Virus record (IMG/VR): IMGVR_UViG_3300032282_005588
Span: 16,083-80,082 of that record
Length of the DNA stretch: 64,000 nucleotides
Direction: 5' to 3' (one strand)
Origin: a virus
Part shown: positions 15,857-59,631 of the stretch, in pieces
Layout of the letters: every line of letters begins with the position of its first letter
Numbering within the stretch: position 1 is the first letter of the stretch
The notes under the pieces: generated by a model
Told to the model about the DNA's origin: nothing
Seen by the model: only the letters and a program-made list of their open reading frames with translations
The model's database searches: none
Program-made: the position numbers and the translations under genes

Positions 15857-17296
15857 ATGTATAAAGAAGGTTATATACCAAAAGAACAACGAAAACGTAT
15901 TCTCTTAATCACAGATGATATAAGAGTTCATTCTGGGGTAGGTTCAATAGGAAGAGAAATAGTTCTCCATACATCCCATAGATATAATTGGGTTTGTATA
16001 GGAGGAGCAATCCAACATCCAGATATAGGTAAACGATTTGATTTATCTGATGAAACTAATAAAATGGTAGGGATTGATGATTCTAATATTATTTTATACC
16101 CAACAAATGGTTATGGGGATCCTGATTTGATTAGATATATGATTAAGAATGAAAAAATTGATGCTATATTTTTAATTACGGACCCAAGATATTTTACTTG
16201 GTTATTCCAAATGGAAAATGAAATTAGAAAGAAAGTACCAATAACTTATCTTAATATTTGGGACTCAGTACCAGCCCCAATGTATAATAAAGAATTTTAT
16301 GAATCATGTGATTCTTTATTAGGTATATCTAAACAAACAGTTAATATTAATAAAATAGTTTTAGGAGATAAATCCCAACAAAAAATAATAAGTTATGTTC
16401 CTCATGGTTTAAATCATAATTTTTTCTTCCCAATAGATGAAAATCATAAAGATTGGGATAAATTTAAAGAATTTAAGAAAACATTATTTGGAGAAAAAGA
16501 ATACAAATACACAGCTATATTTAATTCTCGTAATATTAGAAGAAAACAAGTATCAGATGTTATATTAGCTTGGAGAATGTTTTGTGATAAAATTGGGGAA
16601 GAACAAGCCAAAGATTGTGCTTTAATACTTCATACACAACCCCAAGATGAAAATGGTACAGATTTACAAGCATTAATAGAATACTTATGTCCCGATTATT
16701 GTAATGTACTTATATCACATAATAAATTAGCTACTGAACATATGAATTATTTATATAATTGTGCTGATATAGGAATATTATTATCATCAAATGAGGGTTG
16801 GGGATTAATGTTAACTGAATGTTTATTAACAGGAACACCATTCATAGCTAATGTTACTGGAGGGATGCAAGATCAAATGAGATTTGAAGATGAAGATGAA
16901 GAATGGATTGATTTTAATGAAGATTTTCCATCAAACCATAAAGGTACCTATACAAAGTGTGGTGATTGGGCATTTCCAGTATTTCCTAAAGTAAATACTT
17001 TAGTAGGTTCTATTCCAACTCCATATATATTTGATGATATTTGCAATACTGGTGATGTGGTAGATAGATTAATACAAACATATTATATAGGTAAAGAAAA
17101 ATTATCTAATAAAGGTTTAAAAGGAAGAAAATGGGCAACATCATCAGAAGCTGGATTTACAATGGAATATCAAGCTGATAGAATTATTGAAAATATGGAT
17201 AAATTATTTGAAACATGGACTCCTAGGGAGAAATATGAATTATTAGCAGATACAGATTATCAACCTAGGGTTTTAAAACATAAACTTACTTATTAA
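15857..17296 (+). CDS. Glycosyltransferase (GT-B, GT4-like)
   Basis: HSGVG, VPHG, RNIRRK, NEGWGL..TE. Confidence 0.85.
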   Translation: MYKEGYIPKEQRKRILLITDDIRVHSGVGSIGREIVLHTSHRYNWVCIGGAIQHPDIGKRFDLSDETNKMVGIDDSNIILYPTNGYGDPDLIRYMIKNEKIDAIFLITDPRYFTWLFQMENEIRKKVPITYLNIWDSVPAPMYNKEFYESCDSLLGISKQTVNINKIVLGDKSQQKIISYVPHGLNHNFFFPIDENHKDWDKFKEFKKTLFGEKEYKYTAIFNSRNIRRKQVSDVILAWRMFCDKIGEEQAKDCALILHTQPQDENGTDLQALIEYLCPDYCNVLISHNKLATEHMNYLYNCADIGILLSSNEGWGLMLTECLLTGTPFIANVTGGMQDQMRFEDEDEEWIDFNEDFPSNHKGTYTKCGDWAFPVFPKVNTLVGSIPTPYIFDDICNTGDVVDRLIQTYYIGKEKLSNKGLKGRKWATSSEAGFTMEYQADRIIENMDKLFETWTPREKYELLADTDYQPRVLKHKLTY

Positions 17297-32467: not shown

Positions 32468-32858
32468 TAAAATTAAAGATATCTTTGAAAAAGTATTAGG
32501 AACTAATATTGAAATAGAAGATATAAAAACTAATGGTCTTAGTGATAAAGAAACATTCACCAGTTTTATAAATATGTTTGATGATGTAAATCAAATAGAT
32601 AATGATGTATATGAAATGTTTAGTATGGATTTATCATCAATAACGAGTCCATATAATATATTAATTGAGAGTTTACTTTTAGTAATATATCCTCCAGGAA
32701 TAGTTGAACTTATATTGTGGTATATATATGACAGAAGAACACCAGAAGGAGAAATAAATCTCTTAGAGGATGAAACAGGAAAAAAATATAAACTTAAAAA
32801 TTCTAATGATTTATGGAATTTCCTCCAAAAACTTAAAATAAGTAATGAGACAAGCTAA
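32454..32858 (+). CDS. Hypothetical protein
   Basis: Coupled ORF in the operon. Confidence 0.6.
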   Translation: MSENNKIKDIFEKVLGTNIEIEDIKTNGLSDKETFTSFINMFDDVNQIDNDVYEMFSMDLSSITSPYNILIESLLLVIYPPGIVELILWYIYDRRTPEGEINLLEDETGKKYKLKNSNDLWNFLQKLKISNETS

Positions 32859-33498
32859 ACCAATATCTAAAGAAATGTGTTTAGATGCTATGAATAAAAC
32901 TAGATCAATTAAGGCAGCAGCTAGATATTTAAATTGTTCATATCAGCATTTAAAACCTTATATGAAAATGTATATAGATGAAAATTCTGGAAAGAGTTTA
33001 TTTGAAATACATAAAAATCAAGCAGGTAAGGGTATATATAAATATCTAAGATATAGTCCTAAAAAACAATTAGCACTGAGTGATTTAATGGAGGGTAAAA
33101 TAGATTCATCACATTATGATCCTCAAAAAATTAAATTTAGATTATTTGAAGAAGGATTTCTTAAGGAAGAATGTGGTGTTTGTGGTTTTCATGATAGAAG
33201 ATTATTAGATTATAAAGTACCTGTTTTATTACATTTTAAAGATGAAAATAGACAAAATTATAAATTAACTAATTTAGAAATATTATGTTATAATTGTTAT
33301 TTTTTAATATGTGGTGATATTTTTAATAAAAAGGATATAATATCTATAGAGGGTAAAAATGATGTTAATAGTGTAACAATTGCATCAGATTTTCAAATGG
33401 ATGATTACCATATTCAAAGATTAAAGGATATCGGTATGTGGGGAGAAGATAATGATGAGGATGATAGTCCATATTCGTTAGTTAGTAGAAAAAAATGA
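32845..33498 (+). CDS. HTH plus HNH-like Zn-binding protein
   Basis: SIKAAARYLNCSY, then C..CG, LLHFKD.N..N....NL.ILCYNC. Confidence 0.65.
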   Translation: MRQAKPISKEMCLDAMNKTRSIKAAARYLNCSYQHLKPYMKMYIDENSGKSLFEIHKNQAGKGIYKYLRYSPKKQLALSDLMEGKIDSSHYDPQKIKFRLFEEGFLKEECGVCGFHDRRLLDYKVPVLLHFKDENRQNYKLTNLEILCYNCYFLICGDIFNKKDIISIEGKNDVNSVTIASDFQMDDYHIQRLKDIGMWGEDNDEDDSPYSLVSRKK

Positions 33499-34960: not shown

Positions 34961-35314
34961 ATGTTAATAATAAAAACCAAATTAGATAATTCATCAATTC
35001 ATGGAATTGGGTTGTTTTCATTAGAAAAAATAGAAAAAGAACAAGTCATTGCTGAATTGAGTGAATTTGATATTAAAATTAAAAAAGATGATGTTCCACA
35101 AAAACATATTGAAATGTTTGAGTTTTATTTTGGTGTTGAAAAAGATTGTTATCAAACATATTTTGACAACATGCGTTTTATGAATCATTCAGATTATCCA
35201 AATTGTATTGACGCAAAAAATGGTTTATGTATTGCTATTAAAGATATCGAAATAGGTAAAGAACTTACTTGCGATTATTCTTTTTTTTGTGATTTATGGG
35301 AAAATATTGATTAA
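34961..35314 (+). CDS. SET-domain protein
   Basis: S.IHG.GLF, RFMNHSD.PN, A.KDI..G.ELT.DY. Confidence 0.88.
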   Translation: MLIIKTKLDNSSIHGIGLFSLEKIEKEQVIAELSEFDIKIKKDDVPQKHIEMFEFYFGVEKDCYQTYFDNMRFMNHSDYPNCIDAKNGLCIAIKDIEIGKELTCDYSFFCDLWENID

Positions 35315-35338
35315 ATATTAATTTTTTTTTCATTTTTA

Positions 35339-35370
35339 TTAGGAATATCGAAATAAGTTTATTACCTTTG
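35339..35370 (+). promoter_or_regulatory. Bacteroidota-type promoter (-7 box TACCTTTG) pointing into the cassette array
   Basis: TAnnTTTG at 35363-35370. Confidence 0.5.
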
Positions 35371-35383
35371 AAAAAAAATAGAT

Positions 35384-35557
35384 ATGAAAGAAATAAATTT
35401 GAAACTTGAAACAAAGAAAGTGGAGTGCGAAACCATTTCAATAAAAACTGCGATAGTGGTTGAAGAAGGAACACCAGAAATAGTTATACCGAAAAAGATT
35501 AGAAAAGAGGTTGAGAAACTTTTGATTGATGAACTTAAAATCTCAAAACAAAAATAA
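35384..35557 (+). CDS. Small hypothetical protein (57 aa), probable remnant of a distal cassette
   Basis: MKEINLKLETKK..., followed closely by the first ATAAC core. Confidence 0.55.
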   Translation: MKEINLKLETKKVECETISIKTAIVVEEGTPEIVIPKKIRKEVEKLLIDELKISKQK

Positions 35558-35565
35558 CATTTCAT

Positions 35566-35615
35566 ATAACGGTTGCAAATAAAACATCGTTTTAATGTGT
35601 TTTATTTGTTGTTAT
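35566..35615. repeat. attC-like hairpin 1
   Basis: ATAAC-GGTTG-CAAATAAAACA-tcgttttaatg-TGTTTTATTTG-TT-GTTAT. Confidence 0.85.
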
Positions 35616-35656
35616 GTTTTAGTTTTAAAAATTTTATACAAATAAAAAATAAATAT

Positions 35657-36025
35657 ATGGAAACAAAAAAAGCAGAAATAGAAATAAAAAACTTACTTGA
35701 TAGTGGTTTAAGTTTTGAATATGATTTTGATTACAATAATGTAAATAAAGTTAATTTAGCAATTAACAGAGAAGGATATTCTATAAAAGATATTATTTCA
35801 AAACTTAAACAAGGTGAGAAAATTACTTTTATGATAAATGATGGTGAAACTTGGAATGAAAAACAAGGCAATGAAAGTAAGTTTTTATACAATGAAAAAT
35901 ATGATGGTTCTATTTATTGGGAACACAAAACTTATGGTGATTGGGTAAGGGTTGATAGCAATATGGGTTCGTTACAAGAATGGTCAAAAGAATTAAATGA
36001 TAAGTTTTGTATAAAACAATCATAA
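35657..36025 (+). CDS. Cassette 1 hypothetical protein
   Basis: METKKAEIEI..., lying between GTTAT 35611 and ATAAC 36043. Confidence 0.7.
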   Translation: METKKAEIEIKNLLDSGLSFEYDFDYNNVNKVNLAINREGYSIKDIISKLKQGEKITFMINDGETWNEKQGNESKFLYNEKYDGSIYWEHKTYGDWVRVDSNMGSLQEWSKELNDKFCIKQS

Positions 36026-36042
36026 AATTTTTAAAATTAAAC

Positions 36043-36357
36043 ATAACGGTTGCGGATATATGAATGTAAAAAATTAATAATTAGAAAGATGATAACAATA
36101 CAAAATTTAACGGAATTAGGTTTTAGTGAGATACTTGATATATTCACTGGAAAACAAGTTTGGGTTTTAGGTGAAGAAGATACGGAGATATGTGGAAACC
36201 CCTGTAGATTACCAATATTATATTACAACATAGAAACTCAAACTTGTAAAGTAGTTAGGGGTGAATTTTGTGTTGTTCAACGAGAATGTAAATCGGAGGA
36301 AGAAATTAGAAAGTTTGTAGAATCTATTAATTTTTTATTTCATATATCCGTTGTTAT
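36043..36357. repeat. attC-like hairpin 2 with a ~250 bp coding loop
   Basis: ATAAC-GGTTG-CGGATATATGAA.TAAAAAATTAATA ... TATTAATTTTTTA.TTCATATATCCG-TT-GTTAT. Confidence 0.8.
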
Positions 36358-36418
36358 AAATAGTAAATTAAAATGGTATCAAAAATTGATTGGTGCATTT
36401 AAGAACAGAAGATTTTAA
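36089..36418 (+). CDS. Cassette 2 hypothetical protein
   Basis: MITIQNLTELGF..., mostly inside the hairpin loop and reading through GTTAT. Confidence 0.65.
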   Translation: MITIQNLTELGFSEILDIFTGKQVWVLGEEDTEICGNPCRLPILYYNIETQTCKVVRGEFCVVQRECKSEEEIRKFVESINFLFHISVVINSKLKWYQKLIGAFKNRRF

Positions 36419-36428
36419 TTTATTGTTT

Positions 36429-36555
36429 ATAACGGTTACAGATATATGTAGTTTTTTTCTTAAATTGAAACACAAAACTTAAATAATATGAACAAAGATA
36501 ATAAGAACACGGAAGTTGATAACACAGATAAAAAATTACATATATCTGATGTTAT
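36429..36555. repeat. attC-like hairpin 3
   Basis: ATAAC-GGTTA-CAGATATATGTAGTTTTTT ... AAAAAATTACATATATCTG-AT-GTTAT. Confidence 0.85.
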
Positions 36556-36709
36556 GAAACGTATTGACGAACTGATAGATGAATATAAACAAGCGAAAAT
36601 TAATATAGACACGTGTACAGATGACTTTGAATGGAATAATTTAGATAGAAGGATAAGTCATTTAAAACGCTTGTTTATAGAAATTGGTGTATGGAAATAT
36701 GTTTCATAA
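36488..36709 (+). CDS. Cassette 3 hypothetical protein
   Basis: Starts in the hairpin loop. Its stop TAA is part of ATAAC. Confidence 0.65.
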   Translation: MNKDNKNTEVDNTDKKLHISDVMKRIDELIDEYKQAKINIDTCTDDFEWNNLDRRISHLKRLFIEIGVWKYVS

Positions 36710-36793
36710 CGATTGGGTATATATGAAGTACCTAACGATAAACTTAAATAATTAGTAGAAACTTTATGAGGTATTTCATATATACCTTGTTAT
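36706..36793. repeat. attC-like hairpin 4
   Basis: ATAAC-GATTG-GGTATATATGAAGTACCT ... AGGTATTTCATATATACC-TT-GTTAT. Confidence 0.85.
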
Positions 36794-36805
36794 AAAACGT
36801 TTATT

Positions 36806-37048
36806 ATGAGATTTAAAAAATTGATTTATAAAAATTTCTTTGGAGAATACAACATTTTGATAACCATAACAGATGATGGTAAAACACCACACAGAGACAC
36901 ATTAATTCCAGATAGGGAAATATATAATTCACATATTTGGATTCACGATAATATTGTAAAAAAGAATCACACAAGAAAAGAAATTTTTATTCTTGATTCT
37001 ATTGTGAGTGATGACGAACTTAAAAGTGTTCTTGGAAATGTTTTATAA
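36806..37048 (+). CDS. Cassette 4 hypothetical protein
   Basis: Stop TAA lies within ATAAC 37045. Confidence 0.65.
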   Translation: MRFKKLIYKNFFGEYNILITITDDGKTPHRDTLIPDREIYNSHIWIHDNIVKKNHTRKEIFILDSIVSDDELKSVLGNVL

Positions 37049-37126
37049 CGTTTTGCACATAAGCGAAGGCACAAATTGCGTTGGCATTGTGCGGTTGGAT
37101 TTGGGCTTTTGCTTATGTGCTGTTAG
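37045..37126. repeat. attC-like hairpin 5
   Basis: ATAAC-GTTTT-GCACATAAGCGAAGGC ... GCTTTTGCTTATGTGC-T-GTTAG. Confidence 0.85.
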
Positions 37127-37163
37127 CAGTAGTACGGATTATTAACAAATAAATATAAATAGA

Positions 37164-37385
37164 ATGAGAATTTATCAATTAAGAACAGCAAAAGAGTTTT
37201 ACAACTCAATTAAAGGAAACTTCACAACAGAAGAATTAATGCAAATGTATGCAGAAGATGTAGCAAAAAGATTTGCTGCTGAATGTGTAAATGAGGCACT
37301 CGGTAATAAGATGGAAGTGTCAAACTCTTTGCATCACGCAATAGAAGGAAAGTACAAATCTATCATTTGGGAGAACGAAGGTTAG
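37164..37385 (+). CDS. Cassette 5 hypothetical protein
   Basis: Lies between GTTAG-CAGTAGTAC and GTATTACTG-CTAAC. Confidence 0.65.
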   Translation: MRIYQLRTAKEFYNSIKGNFTTEELMQMYAEDVAKRFAAECVNEALGNKMEVSNSLHHAIEGKYKSIIWENEG

Positions 37386-37393
37386 TATTACTG

Positions 37394-37521
37394 CTAACGG
37401 TCGGGTATTGTTGTCTGTTGGCGACTTAAACCACAAATGTTAAATTGAAAAACAAAATTAGATATGAGTACAAAAGTTAAATCGAAGCACAAAACCGCCA
37501 ATAGCAACAATACCTTGTTAT
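37394..37521. repeat. attC-like hairpin 6
   Basis: CTAAC-GGTCG-GGTATTGTTG.CTGTTGGCG ... CGCCAATAGCAACAATACC-TT-GTTAT. Confidence 0.85.
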
Positions 37522-37796
37522 CGGCTGCCTTTCTTATTAGCAAGGGCTTCAAGTTGGTAGAAGAAAGTCAAAGTCCGTTTGAAAATTTCAAAATGGATTA
37601 TTTTGTAAAAGAAGGGGTACTGCTTTTTTTCAATACGCCTGTAACCGAATGGAACGAAAATGATTTCCTTGTTGGATGTGCTGAAATGAGATGTGGGAAG
37701 TATTACGTTGTTGCTTTTAGGTGGATAAAAGAGCAAAAAGATATTATTGAAATTTACAAATCGGTAAAAGGTAAGGATTTGGATGGTGTCGGTTAA
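37464..37796 (+). CDS. Cassette 6 hypothetical protein
   Basis: Starts in the hairpin loop and reads through GTTAT. Confidence 0.65.
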   Translation: MSTKVKSKHKTANSNNTLLSAAFLISKGFKLVEESQSPFENFKMDYFVKEGVLLFFNTPVTEWNENDFLVGCAEMRCGKYYVVAFRWIKEQKDIIEIYKSVKGKDLDGVG

Positions 37797-37804
37797 GGTT
37801 GCCG

Positions 37805-37861
37805 CTAACTATTATATATACGCAACTACGTTTAATCACCAATAAAATCAACGGTTTTAAT
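37805..37861. other. attI-like site: last CTAAC core, not followed by a hairpin, abutting the integrase start
   Basis: CTAAC-tattatatatacgcaac..., which reads GTTAG on the minus strand. Confidence 0.55.
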
Positions 37862-38659
37862 ATGAAAATTCTTAAAATATTTGAGGAAAAGTTAAGATAT
37901 AAAAACTACTCAGATAAGAGTATTAGGTTATATATTTCATATTTGAGGCTCTTTTTAGAAAAAGAAAAGATAAAAGACCCATATCAAGTTAGAACCCAAC
38001 AAATAGTCTCATTTCTTGAAAACTACCCATTCACCAGTATAAGTCAACAAAATCAATATATTGGTACTCTTAAATTATTTGCTAAATATATATTAAGTAA
38101 AAAAGACATCCATTTAAGTAAAATGGAGAGACCCAAATCGGAAAAGAAACTACCCAGAGTTATTGATGGGGAATTTATCAAAGAAAAATTATCTAAAATT
38201 GAAAATATAAAGCACAAAGCAATACTTACCTTAACTTACTCTGTTGGATTAAGAGTGTCTGAAGTAGTTAATTTAAAGATTGAAGATATTGATTCCAAAA
38301 GAATGTTGATTCATATCAAAAACGCAAAGGGTAGGAAAGATAGATTGGTTCCGTTATCACCAAATGTTCTCAATCTATTAAGAGAATATTTTAAAGAATT
38401 CAAACCGACTCAATATCTATTTAATGGTCAAAACTCAAATCAATACTCAATAGGTAGTTGTCAACAAATTTATAAAAAATATATTGATAAAAACAGTTCA
38501 ATACATACTTTAAGGCATTCATCTTTTACAGGTTTACTAGAAAACGGAACTGATTTAAGAATAATACAAAAAATAGCGGGACATTCCTCATCCAAAACAA
38601 CAGAAATTTATACTCATGTCTCCAACCAAATGCTTTCAAAAATTAATTTGGTTATTTAG
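37862..38659 (+). CDS. Tyrosine recombinase (XerD/IntI-like with N-terminal SAM-like domain)
   Basis: Catalytic residues intact: GLRVSE (R), KGRKDR (K), HTLRH (HxxR), GHSS (H), TEIYTH (Y). Confidence 0.93.
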   Translation: MKILKIFEEKLRYKNYSDKSIRLYISYLRLFLEKEKIKDPYQVRTQQIVSFLENYPFTSISQQNQYIGTLKLFAKYILSKKDIHLSKMERPKSEKKLPRVIDGEFIKEKLSKIENIKHKAILTLTYSVGLRVSEVVNLKIEDIDSKRMLIHIKNAKGRKDRLVPLSPNVLNLLREYFKEFKPTQYLFNGQNSNQYSIGSCQQIYKKYIDKNSSIHTLRHSSFTGLLENGTDLRIIQKIAGHSSSKTTEIYTHVSNQMLSKINLVI

Positions 38660-38707: not shown

Positions 38708-39502
38708 ATGATAAATCTACAGGCTCAATTCAAAACAAAAGAAGAAATTCGTTCTTTAGCTCCAAGTATCTTTACTGAAAATGGTGCTTCAAATGTATCA
38801 GAAAATTATACACATATTCCAACATATAAAATTATTGATGATATGGAATTGTTAGGTTGGAAACCAATTGATGCAAAAGAAGTTAAAGCAAGAAAATCAA
38901 TAGGATATCAAAAACACCTAATTGTATTCCGTAATGAAGATATTTTTATTAATGGAGAAGATGGAGACAATGTGTTTCCCCAAATATTACTTACAAATTC
39001 TCATGATGGGAAGAATGCATTTACATTTACAGCAGGTCTTTTTAGAATGATATGTGAAAATGGATTAGTACTTTCAACTAAGGAATTTGAAAATATAAAA
39101 ATTCGTCATTATGGTTATAATTTTGAAGAATTGCAAAACACAATTGAAATGATGGTTAACAAACTACCCCTAACAATTGATTCTATGAATAAATTTAAAC
39201 AAATTCAATTAGGTCAAGACCAAATGATGAAGTTTGCTGAGGAAGCTGTTAAGATTAGATTTAATAATGATATTGATAATATTAAAATTGATTTAGGTGA
39301 TTTACTTACTCCAACACGTATAGAAGATAGAGGGAATGATCTGTGGAGTGTATTTAATGTAGTTCAAGAAAAATTAACACATGGTGGGTTTAATTATAAT
39401 ATTGGTTCTAAAAATCGAAAAGCAAGAAAAATAAAAAATTTCAAACAAGATTTAGATATGAATATTAAATTACATGATTTGGCTTTAGAATATGCTAATT
39501 AA
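38708..39502 (+). CDS. DUF932/DUF945 family protein
   Basis: APSIF, YTHIPT, KHLIVFR, NSHDG, AGLFRMICENGLV, R.ED...DLWSVFNVVQE. Confidence 0.85.
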   Translation: MINLQAQFKTKEEIRSLAPSIFTENGASNVSENYTHIPTYKIIDDMELLGWKPIDAKEVKARKSIGYQKHLIVFRNEDIFINGEDGDNVFPQILLTNSHDGKNAFTFTAGLFRMICENGLVLSTKEFENIKIRHYGYNFEELQNTIEMMVNKLPLTIDSMNKFKQIQLGQDQMMKFAEEAVKIRFNNDIDNIKIDLGDLLTPTRIEDRGNDLWSVFNVVQEKLTHGGFNYNIGSKNRKARKIKNFKQDLDMNIKLHDLALEYAN

Positions 39503-39513
39503 TTTATAATACA

Positions 39514-39909
39514 ATGAATAGAATACAAATAAATGGTGATTGGTATATTAAAGAAGACCAATTAGTTGAAATAAAAAATGTTCCACAAAATCTTATAGAT
39601 GAAGATGATATAATACATGCTAAATCATGTTTATATGAAAGTGATAATTATGCTTGGGAAGCAACATCCATTCGTAAAGATAATTCTGATGCCTATTATG
39701 ATGGGGTTGATATTAAATTCACAGATAAACGAATTAAACCATTTAAAGAAGAATATTGGGATAACAATATATGGGTGATGGATATTTATAATAATTTCCC
39801 TACAGGTGAATCATCATTATCAGCTTTAGAATCTATGGATATTAATGGGGTACAGATATTTAGGGAGTTTATAGGTTATCTAATTAAAATTGGTTGGATT
39901 AAAAATTAA
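39514..39909 (+). CDS. Hypothetical protein
   Basis: 131 aa ORF. Confidence 0.6.
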   Translation: MNRIQINGDWYIKEDQLVEIKNVPQNLIDEDDIIHAKSCLYESDNYAWEATSIRKDNSDAYYDGVDIKFTDKRIKPFKEEYWDNNIWVMDIYNNFPTGESSLSALESMDINGVQIFREFIGYLIKIGWIKN

Positions 39910-39913
39910 TAAT

Positions 39914-40204
39914 ATGATAAAATGGAAATATAAACCCTCAGGTATGTGTCCAGTACAAGCTGAGGGTTGGTTTATGGATTATTATTTTTATTTTAGGGCT
40001 AGATGGGATGAAGCATCAATTGAATTCTCTAAAACAGAACCTGGGTGGGAAAACGATCTTATACATGCTCGATATATTCTATGGACTACTTATAATAAAC
40101 CATATAAAGCTGGATACTTGAATAAGTGGTTTTGTATATTTTTAATATATATAGGGTGTATTAAGTTTTTATTACATAAAAATAAACATAAATCATTATC
40201 ATGA
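39914..40204 (+). CDS. Hypothetical protein
   Basis: G.CPVQAEG....FYFRARW. Confidence 0.6.
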   Translation: MIKWKYKPSGMCPVQAEGWFMDYYFYFRARWDEASIEFSKTEPGWENDLIHARYILWTTYNKPYKAGYLNKWFCIFLIYIGCIKFLLHKNKHKSLS

Positions 40205-40455
40205 CATTTAAAGAAATTATAATATATTGTTTCATCCTACCCGTGGTAACACTTTTCCTTGGGCTTTGGATTGGTTTAAATGGTAATAAAGGTGTTCCAT
40301 CAAAACATTATCCAATTGAGGTACGATGTTATTGGAGTACTAATGGTTATCAATCATATCCAGAAATGGAATGTGACTCGATAAAAGGAGATACATTATG
40401 GAAAGATGGTGTTAGTATTGTTCCTAAAAATATAATTCAAATAAGTTTTAAATAA
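40201..40455 (+). CDS. Hypothetical membrane-anchored protein
   Basis: N-terminal hydrophobic helix. Confidence 0.55.
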   Translation: MTFKEIIIYCFILPVVTLFLGLWIGLNGNKGVPSKHYPIEVRCYWSTNGYQSYPEMECDSIKGDTLWKDGVSIVPKNIIQISFK

Positions 40456-40685
40456 TGAAAGGCATTTTACATAAAGGTGAATATAATGAATGGTTAGTAA
40501 CATGTCAGGATATATTTCAATTACATCCTGATGATGCTAATGAATTATTTGAATTAGAACAAATATTCGATAACTTAGAAGCAAGAATAAGAATACAACC
40601 TATAGTAGAATTTGATGTTGTAGAATATAAAAAATTAACGGGAATTATTAAATACGCTAAATTAATAAAAAATGAAATTCACTGA
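40455..40685 (+). CDS. Hypothetical protein
   Basis: Coupled ORF. Confidence 0.55.
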   Translation: MKGILHKGEYNEWLVTCQDIFQLHPDDANELFELEQIFDNLEARIRIQPIVEFDVVEYKKLTGIIKYAKLIKNEIH

Positions 40686-41265
40686 CACCTTCAAAATATC
40701 ATCAAATAATTTATATTATAAAAATACTTGGTTATATAAAACATATTCTTTTTTGAGATATAATTTCCCTCATTTTTGTAAAAATATTTGGAAATTCAGA
40801 AAAGCACTTTATAATCATTATTGGTTTGATCATTATGGGGTTCTCACATTTATGGAAATAGGTCTTACTGATATGGCTACTAATATTGAAAAATATGGTA
40901 TTGAAGTTGATTCTTCACGATTAAAAAAGGTTGAAAAAATGCGAAGAGTAATTCAATTAATTAAGAATTATAATGACGATTTATATATTGAAATGGCAGA
41001 AAAGGAATTAGGAGAATTAACAACATATAAATTGGAATTTAAACCATCAGAAAATAATCCTGATTTTTTTGAGTTAGTGGATAAAGATACACCAGAAGAA
41101 AAAGAACATAATAAAAAAATATATAATAGAGCAAGAGAAATTGAGGAACAAGAATGGAATGAATTATGGGAAATACTTAAAGGACAAAATTATAATATAT
41201 TCAATAAAGACGAAGACTTTGATGAGCAAAATGATGGATCAGGGATAAGAATATGGTGGGATTAA
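40672..41265 (+). CDS. Hypothetical phage protein
   Basis: 197 aa, ending in WWD. Confidence 0.65.
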   Translation: MKFTDTFKISSNNLYYKNTWLYKTYSFLRYNFPHFCKNIWKFRKALYNHYWFDHYGVLTFMEIGLTDMATNIEKYGIEVDSSRLKKVEKMRRVIQLIKNYNDDLYIEMAEKELGELTTYKLEFKPSENNPDFFELVDKDTPEEKEHNKKIYNRAREIEEQEWNELWEILKGQNYNIFNKDEDFDEQNDGSGIRIWWD

Positions 41266-57939: not shown

Positions 57940-58352
57940 TATTAAATTATAAAACACAATTAAATTCCTTAAACAGGACCCAATTAAGAAAAATAACTAA
58001 ATTATCATTGGATTGGTGTTTTATTAATATTAAACCTACTGTTTATAAAACATCACCCGAATTTAGAATTTCTAAAAAGGAAAGTGATTGTTATGGGGAA
58101 TATTTAAGGTTTGAAGAAAATAAAAAACATTTTATAACATTATATCCTAATGAATGTAAAATATTAGCTAGATTTATTTCTACTATTATTCATGAATATA
58201 TACATAGTACTCAAAAATTACTTGAAAGAGACTATGATTCCTATAATTTTAAATATGGTTCATGGGAAAATCCATTTGAAGTTGAATCCAGAAATTTGGA
58301 AAAAGAATATCGTAAACAATTATTAGAATACATTTTAAATATAATACATTAA
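57936..58352 (+). CDS. Putative zinc metallopeptidase-like protein
   Basis: TIIHEYIHS.Q ... NPFEVE. Confidence 0.65.
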   Translation: MILNYKTQLNSLNRTQLRKITKLSLDWCFINIKPTVYKTSPEFRISKKESDCYGEYLRFEENKKHFITLYPNECKILARFISTIIHEYIHSTQKLLERDYDSYNFKYGSWENPFEVESRNLEKEYRKQLLEYILNIIH

Positions 58353-58462
58353 TACATATTAACTTTTAGCGCATTAATAATTAACGCTCTATAAAAGCTG
58401 TAGAGAATTGCTTGGAAATGTGGAATATGTTTCATACATTAACATCATAATAAGAAAATAAA

Positions 58463-58681
58463 ATGACTAAGTTAATTAAAAAATCAGAAACACCTCGCAT
58501 AAAGTATTTTGTAGGTGATCAAGTTGAATGGAGTAAAATATTCCACGATGGTAGATCATATGAATCTATTACCTTTTCCGGTGAAGTTATTAAAGTATGT
58601 CCTGTAAATTTACATGTTAAGGATAGTAAAGGAAACATCTATTCTGTAAACAGAGAAACAGAAGCCCGTAAAATTAAATAA
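58463..58681 (+). CDS. Small SH3/KOW-like early protein
   Basis: VGDQVEW...GEVIKV. Has its own promoter. Confidence 0.55.
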   Translation: MTKLIKKSETPRIKYFVGDQVEWSKIFHDGRSYESITFSGEVIKVCPVNLHVKDSKGNIYSVNRETEARKIK

Positions 58682-58785
58682 AACCTTTAGAGTGTTAATT
58701 ACTAACGCTCTATAAGAGTTATGAAGAATTGTTTGGCTTTACATGATTCATTACATACATTAACATCATAATAAGAAATAATAAT

Positions 58786-59631
58786 ATGAATACAATTGAA
58801 TTAACTCCATCGGAATTTGAACTTATCAAATTAAAACGTGAACAAGAAGATTTACTTGAAAAGCAATTAAAAATTAAAAAAGAAATTGCTCTTGAAAAAG
58901 AAATAATTGAAAAAGAAGCCATTATTAGTAAATACCAAGAAAAAGACAGTCAACAAATAAAAGCAACTAACTTTTTTGCAGAAAAGTTAGGTAAAAATTA
59001 TGAAATAATTCTTCGTAAATATGACCAACAAATGGTTATAGAGGGTGATTATATTAATAAATTAAATCCAAGTGAAGAGAATTATAAAAGACATATTATT
59101 TGGATAAAAACATTTGAACGAATATCAGCTAAAATTAAATATGATAATTATCATATAGATGTAGTAGAATTTATTACATATGGTAAATATGGAAAATTGA
59201 AGGAAAATAAAGGGTATAGAATGTATGTTTCAGGACCAGGAATTTCTTCTAATAGAAGAAGTTATATTAATATTAAAAAAATAAGTGATTTAATTGAGAA
59301 TGCTATTAATAAAATAAATAATGAAAAGCAATTAGAAGAAAAAAAGAAAGGAGCTTTACAGATTACAGTAGATAAAATGAAAACATTATATCCTAATGCA
59401 AATATTATTACGGGTTATGATTATGAAAGAAATAATTATATGAAAAGGGCTTTTGGGGATCGTTATGATACTGTTGCTATTTGTTTTGAAAATGGTTCAT
59501 CTATAAAATATAGAGTATACTCAGATGCCTCTTTAGGAAGATTAAGTATTAATTTTCCTAGTAATATAAACGATAGTTGGTCTTTAATGGAATTACTATC
59601 TCAAATAAACTTTACTTTAATAACTAATTAA
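58786..59631 (+). CDS. Hypothetical early protein with a coiled-coil N-terminus
   Basis: 281 aa with its own promoter. Confidence 0.65.
   Translation: MNTIELTPSEFELIKLKREQEDLLEKQLKIKKEIALEKEIIEKEAIISKYQEKDSQQIKATNFFAEKLGKNYEIILRKYDQQMVIEGDYINKLNPSEENYKRHIIWIKTFERISAKIKYDNYHIDVVEFITYGKYGKLKENKGYRMYVSGPGISSNRRSYINIKKISDLIENAINKINNEKQLEEKKKGALQITVDKMKTLYPNANIITGYDYERNNYMKRAFGDRYDTVAICFENGSSIKYRVYSDASLGRLSINFPSNINDSWSLMELLSQINFTLITN

Follow-up and report, generated by a model that had tools for sequence, protein, structure and literature searches.

The textbook device for gene capture and reshuffling in bacteria is the integron, whose definition rests on a single enzyme lineage, IntI. In class 1 and Vibrio integrons it is the bottom strand of the attC site that folds and is cut, at AA|C in the 5' arm, with intI located on the same strand beyond attI; read 5' to 3', this bottom strand presents a hairpin, a gene in antisense and so on until attI and intI. 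Here we describe an array of comparable design in viral DNA, found in a 64,000-nucleotide stretch (hereafter the window) that covers positions 16,083 to 80,082 of IMG/VR record IMGVR_UViG_3300032282_005588, an 80-kb virus contig from a lake-water phage whose genes within these 64 kb all run on one strand. Between positions 35566 and 38659, six one-gene cassettes, each headed by a hairpin, precede an attI-like site and an intact tyrosine recombinase. With a probability that we put at about 0.78, this locus is a phage-borne integron-like platform for gene capture and shuffling. A first reading of the letters and open reading frames (ORFs) of the window (hereafter the sequence-only reading) had proposed the same, and the proposal is supported by the link of the hairpins to one recombinase clade, by the varying content and order of the cassettes and by the missing IntI insert.

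Other described systems share features with the locus. Gene units bounded by alternately inverted recombination sites are found in the pdif modules of Acinetobacter plasmids. Qi et al. (2023) applied IntegronFinder and HattCI to 10,705 phage genomes and reported canonical integrons as well as clusters of attC sites lacking an integron integrase (CALINs), the latter in virulent phages that include Polaribacter phage P12002L (PMC9892861). One site called by HattCI in that phage, P12002L_attC1, belongs to the family studied here; it was treated as an ordinary attC acquired by phages and was the sole tested site that IntI1 did not recombine, and neither a dedicated recombinase, an attI nor a phage-wide system is described in that work (PMC9892861). 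The P12002L_attC1 oligonucleotide corresponds to a hairpin of the 48-nt class defined below (TAAC, 5-nt spacer, stem, loop TCGTTTTAATG, stem, TGTTA). In T4-type phages, repeated stem-loops termed PeSLs flank small variable ORFs and mark gene gain and loss (PMC2839356, PMC4122927). No published description of the recombinase, the attI or the whole system was found in the literature searched, outside which most subscription journals lay.

The array occupies 35566-37809 on the plus strand and contains seven (A/C)TAAC cores (T at 35567, 36044, 36430, 36707, 37046, 37395 and 37806) and six GTTA cores (35611, 36353, 36551, 36789, 37122 and 37517), which form six TAAC...GTTA hairpins bounding six one-gene units; all thirteen cores lie where the sequence-only reading had put them. 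Its near-fixed hairpin geometry was recovered by a purpose-written detector (TAAC, 3-7 nt, stem of at least 9 bp, loop, stem, 0-3 nt, GTTA), the window sites having spacers of 5 nt on the 5' and 2 nt on the 3' side (1 nt in site 5). In the rest of the 64 kb the detector returned only four weak 9-match hits on the plus strand, and four on the minus strand, three of them weak and one of 16/19. When folded as single strands, the six hairpins gave z-scores of -2.2 to -5.1 against dinucleotide shuffles. At the seventh core no hairpin was found by the same measure, the stretch downstream of it scoring +0.8, in agreement with the earlier description of a hairpin-free last core next to an intact recombinase. 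Counted from TAAC to TAAC, the units measure 277-477 bp and carry one plus-strand ORF apiece, of 73-122 aa, as had been claimed. The complementary unit ends noted earlier are likewise present, as inverted repeats of 15-24 nt between each GTTA(n) arm and the following TAAC(n+1) arm.

Individually, cassette 1 (35567..36043, 477 bp) starts with a hairpin of the 48-nt class (35567-35614, loop TCGTTTTAATG) and encodes a 122-aa product (35657-36025). Cassette 2 (36044..36429, 386 bp) has a hairpin at 36044-36356 (stem of about 25 bp, z -5.1), and its ORF (36089-36418, 109 aa) lies for the most part within the 260-nt loop. Cassette 3 (36430..36706, 277 bp; hairpin 36430-36554) carries an ORF of 73 aa (36488-36709) that begins within the loop and takes its stop codon from the TAA of the core that follows, and the 80-aa ORF (36806-37048) of cassette 4 (36707..37045, 339 bp; hairpin 36707-36792, 88-nt class, z -4.6) ends in the same manner. 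Cassette 5 (37046..37394, 349 bp; hairpin 37046-37125, z -4.5) encodes 73 aa (37164-37385), and cassette 6 (37395..37805, 411 bp; hairpin 37395-37520) encodes 110 aa (37464-37796), again starting in the loop. None of the six ORFs, that of cassette 1 included, matched a family in Pfam or PHROG. The array ends in the attI-like site (37805..37821), which reads CTAAC then TATTATATATAC, forms no hairpin and lies 55 nt before the ATG of the recombinase gene (37862..38659, plus strand), which is intact and encodes a Xer/XerA-like protein of 265 aa.

In the mechanism that we propose, a small Xer-type recombinase, encoded immediately beyond a conserved double-stranded attI-like site, (A/C)TAAC-TATNATATATA, would serve the cassette array upstream of it, each cassette being made up of a folded-strand recombination site and, downstream of it in the same orientation, one small gene. 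This site comprises a 5-bp R-box (TAACG:TGTTA), a bulge of 3-4 nt on the 5' arm only, a stem of 10-25 bp that bears a conserved TA/AT step and fixed G.T wobbles, and a loop of 9-260 nt. Exchange would take place on the plus strand, within the TAAC core, where the hairpin has its 5' foot, and the movable unit would therefore span one TAAC to the next. Once such a unit was excised and closed, its two ends could pair and extend the hairpin outwards. New units would enter at the attI beside the recombinase and leave by core-to-core recombination. The recombinase would act as the catalyst, its substrate would be single-stranded DNA, as for attC, and the intermediates would be circular.

Relatives of the recombinase with 52-86% identity were found on 80 IMG/VR contigs of up to 362 kb. 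In their loci (808 kb), 338 hairpins share the strand of the recombinase gene and 8 are on the opposite one, and 316 were counted in the 302 kb upstream of the recombinase gene against 2 in the 409 kb downstream (one GTTA partner kept per TAAC). The hairpins are thus tied to this recombinase clade, an association whose absence elsewhere would, by the sequence-only reading, have spoken against an integron-like system. At least one site is present within 1.5 kb upstream in 56 of the 61 loci having at least 1 kb of upstream sequence, and arrays reach at least 14 sites, the count at which the fetched flank ends. The motif (A/C)TAAC-TATNATATATA precedes the start codon by about 55 nt in 75 of 77 loci; to its left the sequence is unrelated in every phage, and homology between loci begins exactly at its TAAC. 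The same cassette end can be joined to the attI in one place and to a hairpin elsewhere (L069, L021/L024). In the window, the site at 37805..37821 would accordingly represent the cassette insertion point, and as a duplex (TAAC + 6 nt + ATA) it may resemble the continuous arm of a hairpin.

The cassettes of the relatives vary as whole units. When blocks of homology shared by loci (200 bp or more, at 85% identity or more) were delimited, 37 of 168 breakpoints fell on TAAC, compared with 2.3% of random positions, and no excess was seen at GTTA. Cutting the arrays at TAAC yielded 322 units (median 382 bp) in 275 clusters, 241 of them singletons. Three loci (L021, L022 and L024) hold the same units in differing orders, and L069 holds one 388-bp unit twice, as an internal copy and as a copy against the attI; in all cases of shuffled or duplicated units the flanks diverge within or right beside TAAC. 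Cassette content and order had been expected to differ among relatives if the array was active, and they do so with exact unit boundaries. Unit 1 of the window is identical at 476 of 477 positions (99.8%) to a unit of another phage (L037_408) that has other neighbours on both sides, despite only 75% identity between the two recombinase genes, and further pairs of shared units show 97-99.9% identity versus 75-87% for the recombinase genes. Cassette 2 is 94.8% identical to L013_1294, whose neighbours also differ. Taken together, these comparisons show units that are present or absent as a whole, shuffled, duplicated and transferred horizontally.

Contigs of other lake metagenomes agree with these boundaries. 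One from run X2 carries exactly 35567-36048 in a foreign context, and others diverge from the window left of 35565-67, 36043 and 37043-45; as assembled contigs, these runs can show neither circle junctions nor rare excision. The bins covering hairpins (35528-35641, 36440-36553, 36668-36895 and 37010-37123) exceed most neighbouring ORF bins in depth by a factor of roughly 10-50 (in run X2, for example, 570 against 24), and the hairpin families are common to many cassettes and phages in those lakes. For cassette 5, the hairpin bin exceeds the adjacent ORF bin about 24-fold in X2 and about 20-fold in X9, which places its hairpin in a widely shared family.

Across 272 non-redundant units, the GTTA arm and the next TAAC arm are complementary over a mean uninterrupted run of 7.6 nt (at least 6 nt in 64%), compared with 1.2 nt for the hairpin's own left flank and 1.3 nt for shuffled partners. 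This is the signature that would be expected of a unit once closed on itself. The longest ORF is on the plus strand in 257 of 267 non-redundant units, pointing towards the attI; it starts inside the hairpin loop in 96 and ends in the TAA of the next core in 45, so only units cut from TAAC to TAAC keep these genes whole. In a search restricted to the plus strand, no inverted copies of unit clusters were seen. A shufflon or inverton would present both orientations, a pattern at odds with the nearly uniform direction of ORFs and hairpins in these loci.

The system is also represented in cultured phages. A recombinase 37% identical to that of the window is encoded by Polaribacter phages Freya_1 to Freya_10, whose genomes differ in length by the length of the stretch upstream of its gene. 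Six isolates were compared: Freya_1 has no array, Freya_2 has a block a (842 bp), Freya_5 has a and b (b, 902 bp), Freya_6 has a, b and c (c, about 470 bp), Freya_8 has a and d (d, 3.2 kb), and Freya_10 has a, b and d. A single attI (ACCCCTATAAC...) adjoins, at ...AAC|, five different cassette ends, and Freya_8 equals Freya_10 minus b, a clean deletion in which the spacer stays with the downstream unit. The Freya cassette ends share the pattern ATT-N4-(A/C)-(C/T)AAC with the family of the window, and their hairpins take the form AAC + 5-6 nt + stem ... stem + 2-3 nt + GTT. The paper describing the Freya phages does not discuss the array region (PMC8776804).

Two further observations concern Polaribacter phages. 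In Freya_10 (L001 4098-4240), the attI (CTAAC ACCCCT ATAACAACAATAAGTAT) pairs at 15 of 17 positions with the 5' end of the integrase gene, and the pairing encloses the integrase start codon; it could serve autoregulation, or the attI could be one that also folds. P12002L (L176) carries Freya-type hairpins on its minus strand at 32798-32924, 39516-39709 and 40152-40948 (ATT-N4-x-(C/T)AAC + 6 nt + stem ... stem + 2-3 nt + GTTG), which sit among small genes and methyltransferase genes in a genome with no annotated integrase.

The structure of the site was examined on 259 distinct hairpins, which fall into length classes of about 48, 80, 88, 117 and 126 nt with a loose consensus per class. The sequence-only reading had taken the stem to differ each time; the stems do vary, but they are not unrelated each time, as families of length and sequence recur across phages. 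Loop lengths of 9-260 nt defeat alignment across classes with MAFFT, and RNAalifold was applied to one length class of 63 hairpins, with that of cassette 4 as the first row. It predicted 25 pairs, in a consensus fold of TAACG:TGTTA pairing, a 4-nt bulge on the 5' arm only and then 20 continuous pairs; compensatory double changes occur at 17 of these 25 pairs, and G.T is fixed at four positions. Over all stems, mismatches on the plus strand comprise 361 of the G.T type and 28 of the A.C type. Because the stems covary with fixed G.T wobbles and show this bias, the plus strand is judged to be the strand selected to fold. Ahead of GTTA, an A at -7 is conserved in 254 and a T at -1 in 256 of the 259 sites, and T at -8 makes up a conserved TA step with this A; the step lies some 7 bp away from the core, where a second recombinase monomer may sit. 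Single flipped-out extrahelical bases are absent: the 3' arm is continuous and the 5' arm has its bulge of 3-4 nt.

Hairpins of this kind were also encountered outside phages. Of 301 Flavobacteriaceae genomes sampled, 5 (L177-L181) contain solitary members of the 48-nt class that have the conserved loop TCGTTTTAATG and stems with compensating changes; a reversed-pattern control gave 0. No arrays were found within 1.5 kb of them, and they could be host landing sites or cassette relics.

The strongest competitor to folded-strand recombination holds that the same cassettes move by ordinary double-stranded site-specific recombination at (A/C)TAACG direct repeats, of the Xer/dif or lambda type, the hairpins having another use as cruciform or architectural elements. 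The enzyme is nearest in sequence to Xer recombinases and archaeal XerA, which act on duplex sites, the attI is free of a hairpin, and the cores are direct repeats. In L021, L022 and L024, moreover, spacer bases +5 to +7 (GTCT, GTCC and GTAT in units 0, 1 and 26) sometimes seem to track the upstream unit, as would a heteroduplex overlap; conversion between near-identical hairpins or chance may account for them as well. Travel of these bases with the upstream unit is a doubtful interpretation, since the hairpins involved are near-identical, conversion or mutation explains the pattern equally well, and the Freya spacer shows the opposite, remaining cleanly with the downstream unit. Sites of dif and pdif are duplexes of about 28 bp in which two conserved 11-bp arms flank a spacer of 6-8 bp, whereas here only TAACG/TGTTA and the TA step are conserved, and the flanks outside them vary among sites, so that two monomers would find no conserved duplex arms. 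Conservation is seen in the pairing, through the compensatory changes and the strand-specific G.T bias, and we regard duplex recombination as unlikely.

Considerably less probable is that the hairpins are regulatory stem-loops like the PeSLs of T4-type phages, with homologous recombination shuffling the genes and the recombinase unrelated to it. PeSLs do flank variable ORFs in hyperplastic regions of phages, where modular shuffling proceeds without a dedicated enzyme (PMC2839356, PMC4122927), and the present hairpin families recur and greatly outnumber the genes, with loops that hold an A-rich leader and often a start codon. PeSLs, however, are promoter-terminator motifs exchanged by homology, with no recombinase, attI or complementarity between unit ends. 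In the window no intrinsic terminators were found in 35200-38000, and the stems lack a trailing T-run. The attI and the hairpins have TAAC alone in common, too short a sequence for homologous exchange, and the arrays stop precisely at the conserved site that precedes the genes of one recombinase clade.

Relatives of the enzyme in bacteria were collected from one genome for each of 185,579 species. Those of at least 51% identity keep the attI-like motif and lie mostly on short contigs of metagenome-assembled genomes, and chromosomal relatives of at most 47% identity have neither the motif nor arrays; candidate arrays beside those of 38-47% identity were rejected, the matches being at background (24 on the plus and 43 on the minus strand). 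The least credible alternative, a lysogeny integrase with the conserved site as attP and the array as a feature of the mRNA (stability, processing or translation control), draws on the match to phage integrase families, the usual position of attP beside int and a G.U-compatible bias suited to RNA folding, but is opposed by this distribution of relatives (with one isolate as an exception) and by the five different Freya cassette ends that abut the site, which mark it as a joining point for cassettes. The exception is an isolate of Sunxiuqinia indica (L097 1-974), where a recombinase of 59% identity and the attI motif stand at the very start of a 144-kb contig; it may be a copy in the chromosome or in a prophage, with the assembly interrupted by its array.

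Several points weigh against the integron-like platform itself. No recombination event was observed directly. G.T wobbles serve an RNA hairpin equally well, and the folding strand is the mRNA strand. The deletions in the Freya phages could in principle be produced by microhomology, given their shared cassette ends. The same site family is arrayed in phages devoid of the recombinase, such as P12002L, and the recombinase may act in trans or may not be the sole enzyme. Some homology blocks and contig breaks stop just after GTTA, and hairpins recur alone as TAAC-GTTA modules, which the model leaves unexplained; a shared genesis of cassettes or conversion between similar hairpins are possible origins of such modules.

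The recombinase was compared to characterized families by hidden Markov model scores and alignments to PDB structures, on which its placement is based. It has the catalytic residues R131, K156, H215, R218, H241 and Y250 and matches Phage_integrase and Phage_int_SAM_4 of Pfam, the catalytic and SAM-like domains of simple tyrosine recombinases. Among NCBIfam models it scored highest with XerA_Arch (177 bits), followed by integron integrase (148), XerD (147) and XerC (146.5), all below their cut-offs. The integron integrase model TIGR02249 (cut-off 265 bits) matched in two stretches, leaving profile positions 182-252 unmatched. Likewise, alignment to VchIntIA (2a3v) pairs residues 8-176 with chain positions 10-180 and residues 206-256 with 258-308, so that about 48 aa are absent between the aligned pieces, where the IntI-specific insert lies; XerA (4a8e) was matched with 115 bits. 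The control genomes yielded no IntI. As the insert region is missing, the protein is, by these alignments, not an IntI in its defining feature, and the sequence-only reading was right to describe a recombinase without that insert.

Like a classical integron, the phage locus has a tyrosine recombinase beside an attI and an array of one-gene cassettes, with AAC...GTT sites kept in structure, complementary cassette ends and a huge cassette diversity with duplication and shuffling; its plus strand reads hairpin, gene (sense) and so on to attI and recombinase, with the crossover in the 5' TAAC, and so agrees in polarity and order with the bottom strand of an integron. The hairpin sequence families parallel the homogeneous attC families of sedentary chromosomal integrons. 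Judged by the strict definition of an integron, three features are present: the attI lies beside the integrase, with differing cassette ends abutting it; the sites are of the attC type, conserved in structure and fitting RYYYAAC...GTTRRRY; and junctions fall within TAAC or, in Freya, just after AAC, consistent with a crossover at AA|C although the exact phosphodiester bond is not resolvable from sequence, and are accompanied by complementary ends. Three others are lacking. The enzyme has no IntI-specific domain between patches II and III (intI_Cterm signature) and scores best with XerA; the sites have no extrahelical L-box bases, which in integrons determine the strand used and touch the IntI insert, but a one-arm bulge and fixed G.T wobbles instead; and in 257 of 267 units the ORFs are found on the folding strand, whereas integron cassettes have promoterless ORFs on the non-folding strand, driven by a Pc promoter close to attI. 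By membership, the locus is therefore not a classical integron. Outer complementarity extends over 15-24 nt in the phage compared with 4 in classical integrons, many cassette genes begin within the hairpin loop, and the replicon that carries the system is a phage. The differences listed by the sequence-only reading are real, but its gene direction, hairpin-before-gene order and hairpin-first units amount to one and the same difference. The sole architectural change is that the phage genes lie on the folding strand and are transcribed towards the attI and the recombinase; inserted cassettes are therefore co-directional with phage transcription, and their mRNA carries the hairpin.

The cargo of the relatives points to counter-defence, as far as family matches can tell. 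The 150 longest cassette ORFs matched 18 Pfam families, with the caveat that some long units may hide missed sites. DNA methyltransferases are represented by N6_N4 (4 ORFs), MT-A70 (2), D12 (2) and Eco57I (1), and other products include the Thoeris inhibitor Tad6 (4.6e-41), Lar, an RNA ligase, ADP-ribosyltransferases and exonucleases.

In the window, the array is preceded by a gene for a SET-domain protein (34961-35314; Pfam 2.8e-13), and the recombinase gene is directly followed by one for a DUF932 protein (38708-39502; 3.7e-31). The 16/19 detector match on the minus strand (58363-58721) was rejected as a member of the system, as it stems from a different palindromic repeat at 58.3-58.8 kb. 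That region (58340-58800, minus strand) contains a pair of direct repeats, each about 40 bp long and enclosing a palindrome (TAGAGCGTTA...), together with another, shorter repeat (TTATTATGATGTTAATGTATG). The repeats flank a small minus-strand ORF in an otherwise all-plus genome, and together they could form a small mobile or regulatory unit.

On balance, we lean towards the view that Bacteroidota phages run an integron class of their own, built on a minimal Xer-type recombinase without the IntI insert and on folded single-stranded hairpins, through which small cassettes from a common pool numbering hundreds, many with counter-defence genes, move between unrelated phages one at a time. If this is true, attC-style recombination either arose outside the IntI lineage or predates it, and the system would be experimentally tractable in cultured Polaribacter phages; with the Freya phages and their Polaribacter host in culture, the claims made here are directly testable. 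It would represent the logic of integrons at work in viruses with a simpler enzyme, which raises the question of how structure-specific recombination of single strands works without the IntI insert, and a small recombinase with structured sites could possibly be put to use as a tool. For the phages, such a platform would explain how small accessory genes are gained and lost one by one in large genomes. It suggests that anti-restriction methylases, the Thoeris inhibitor and similar counter-defence genes circulate as cassettes, which would mirror the defence cassettes of bacterial chromosomal integrons.

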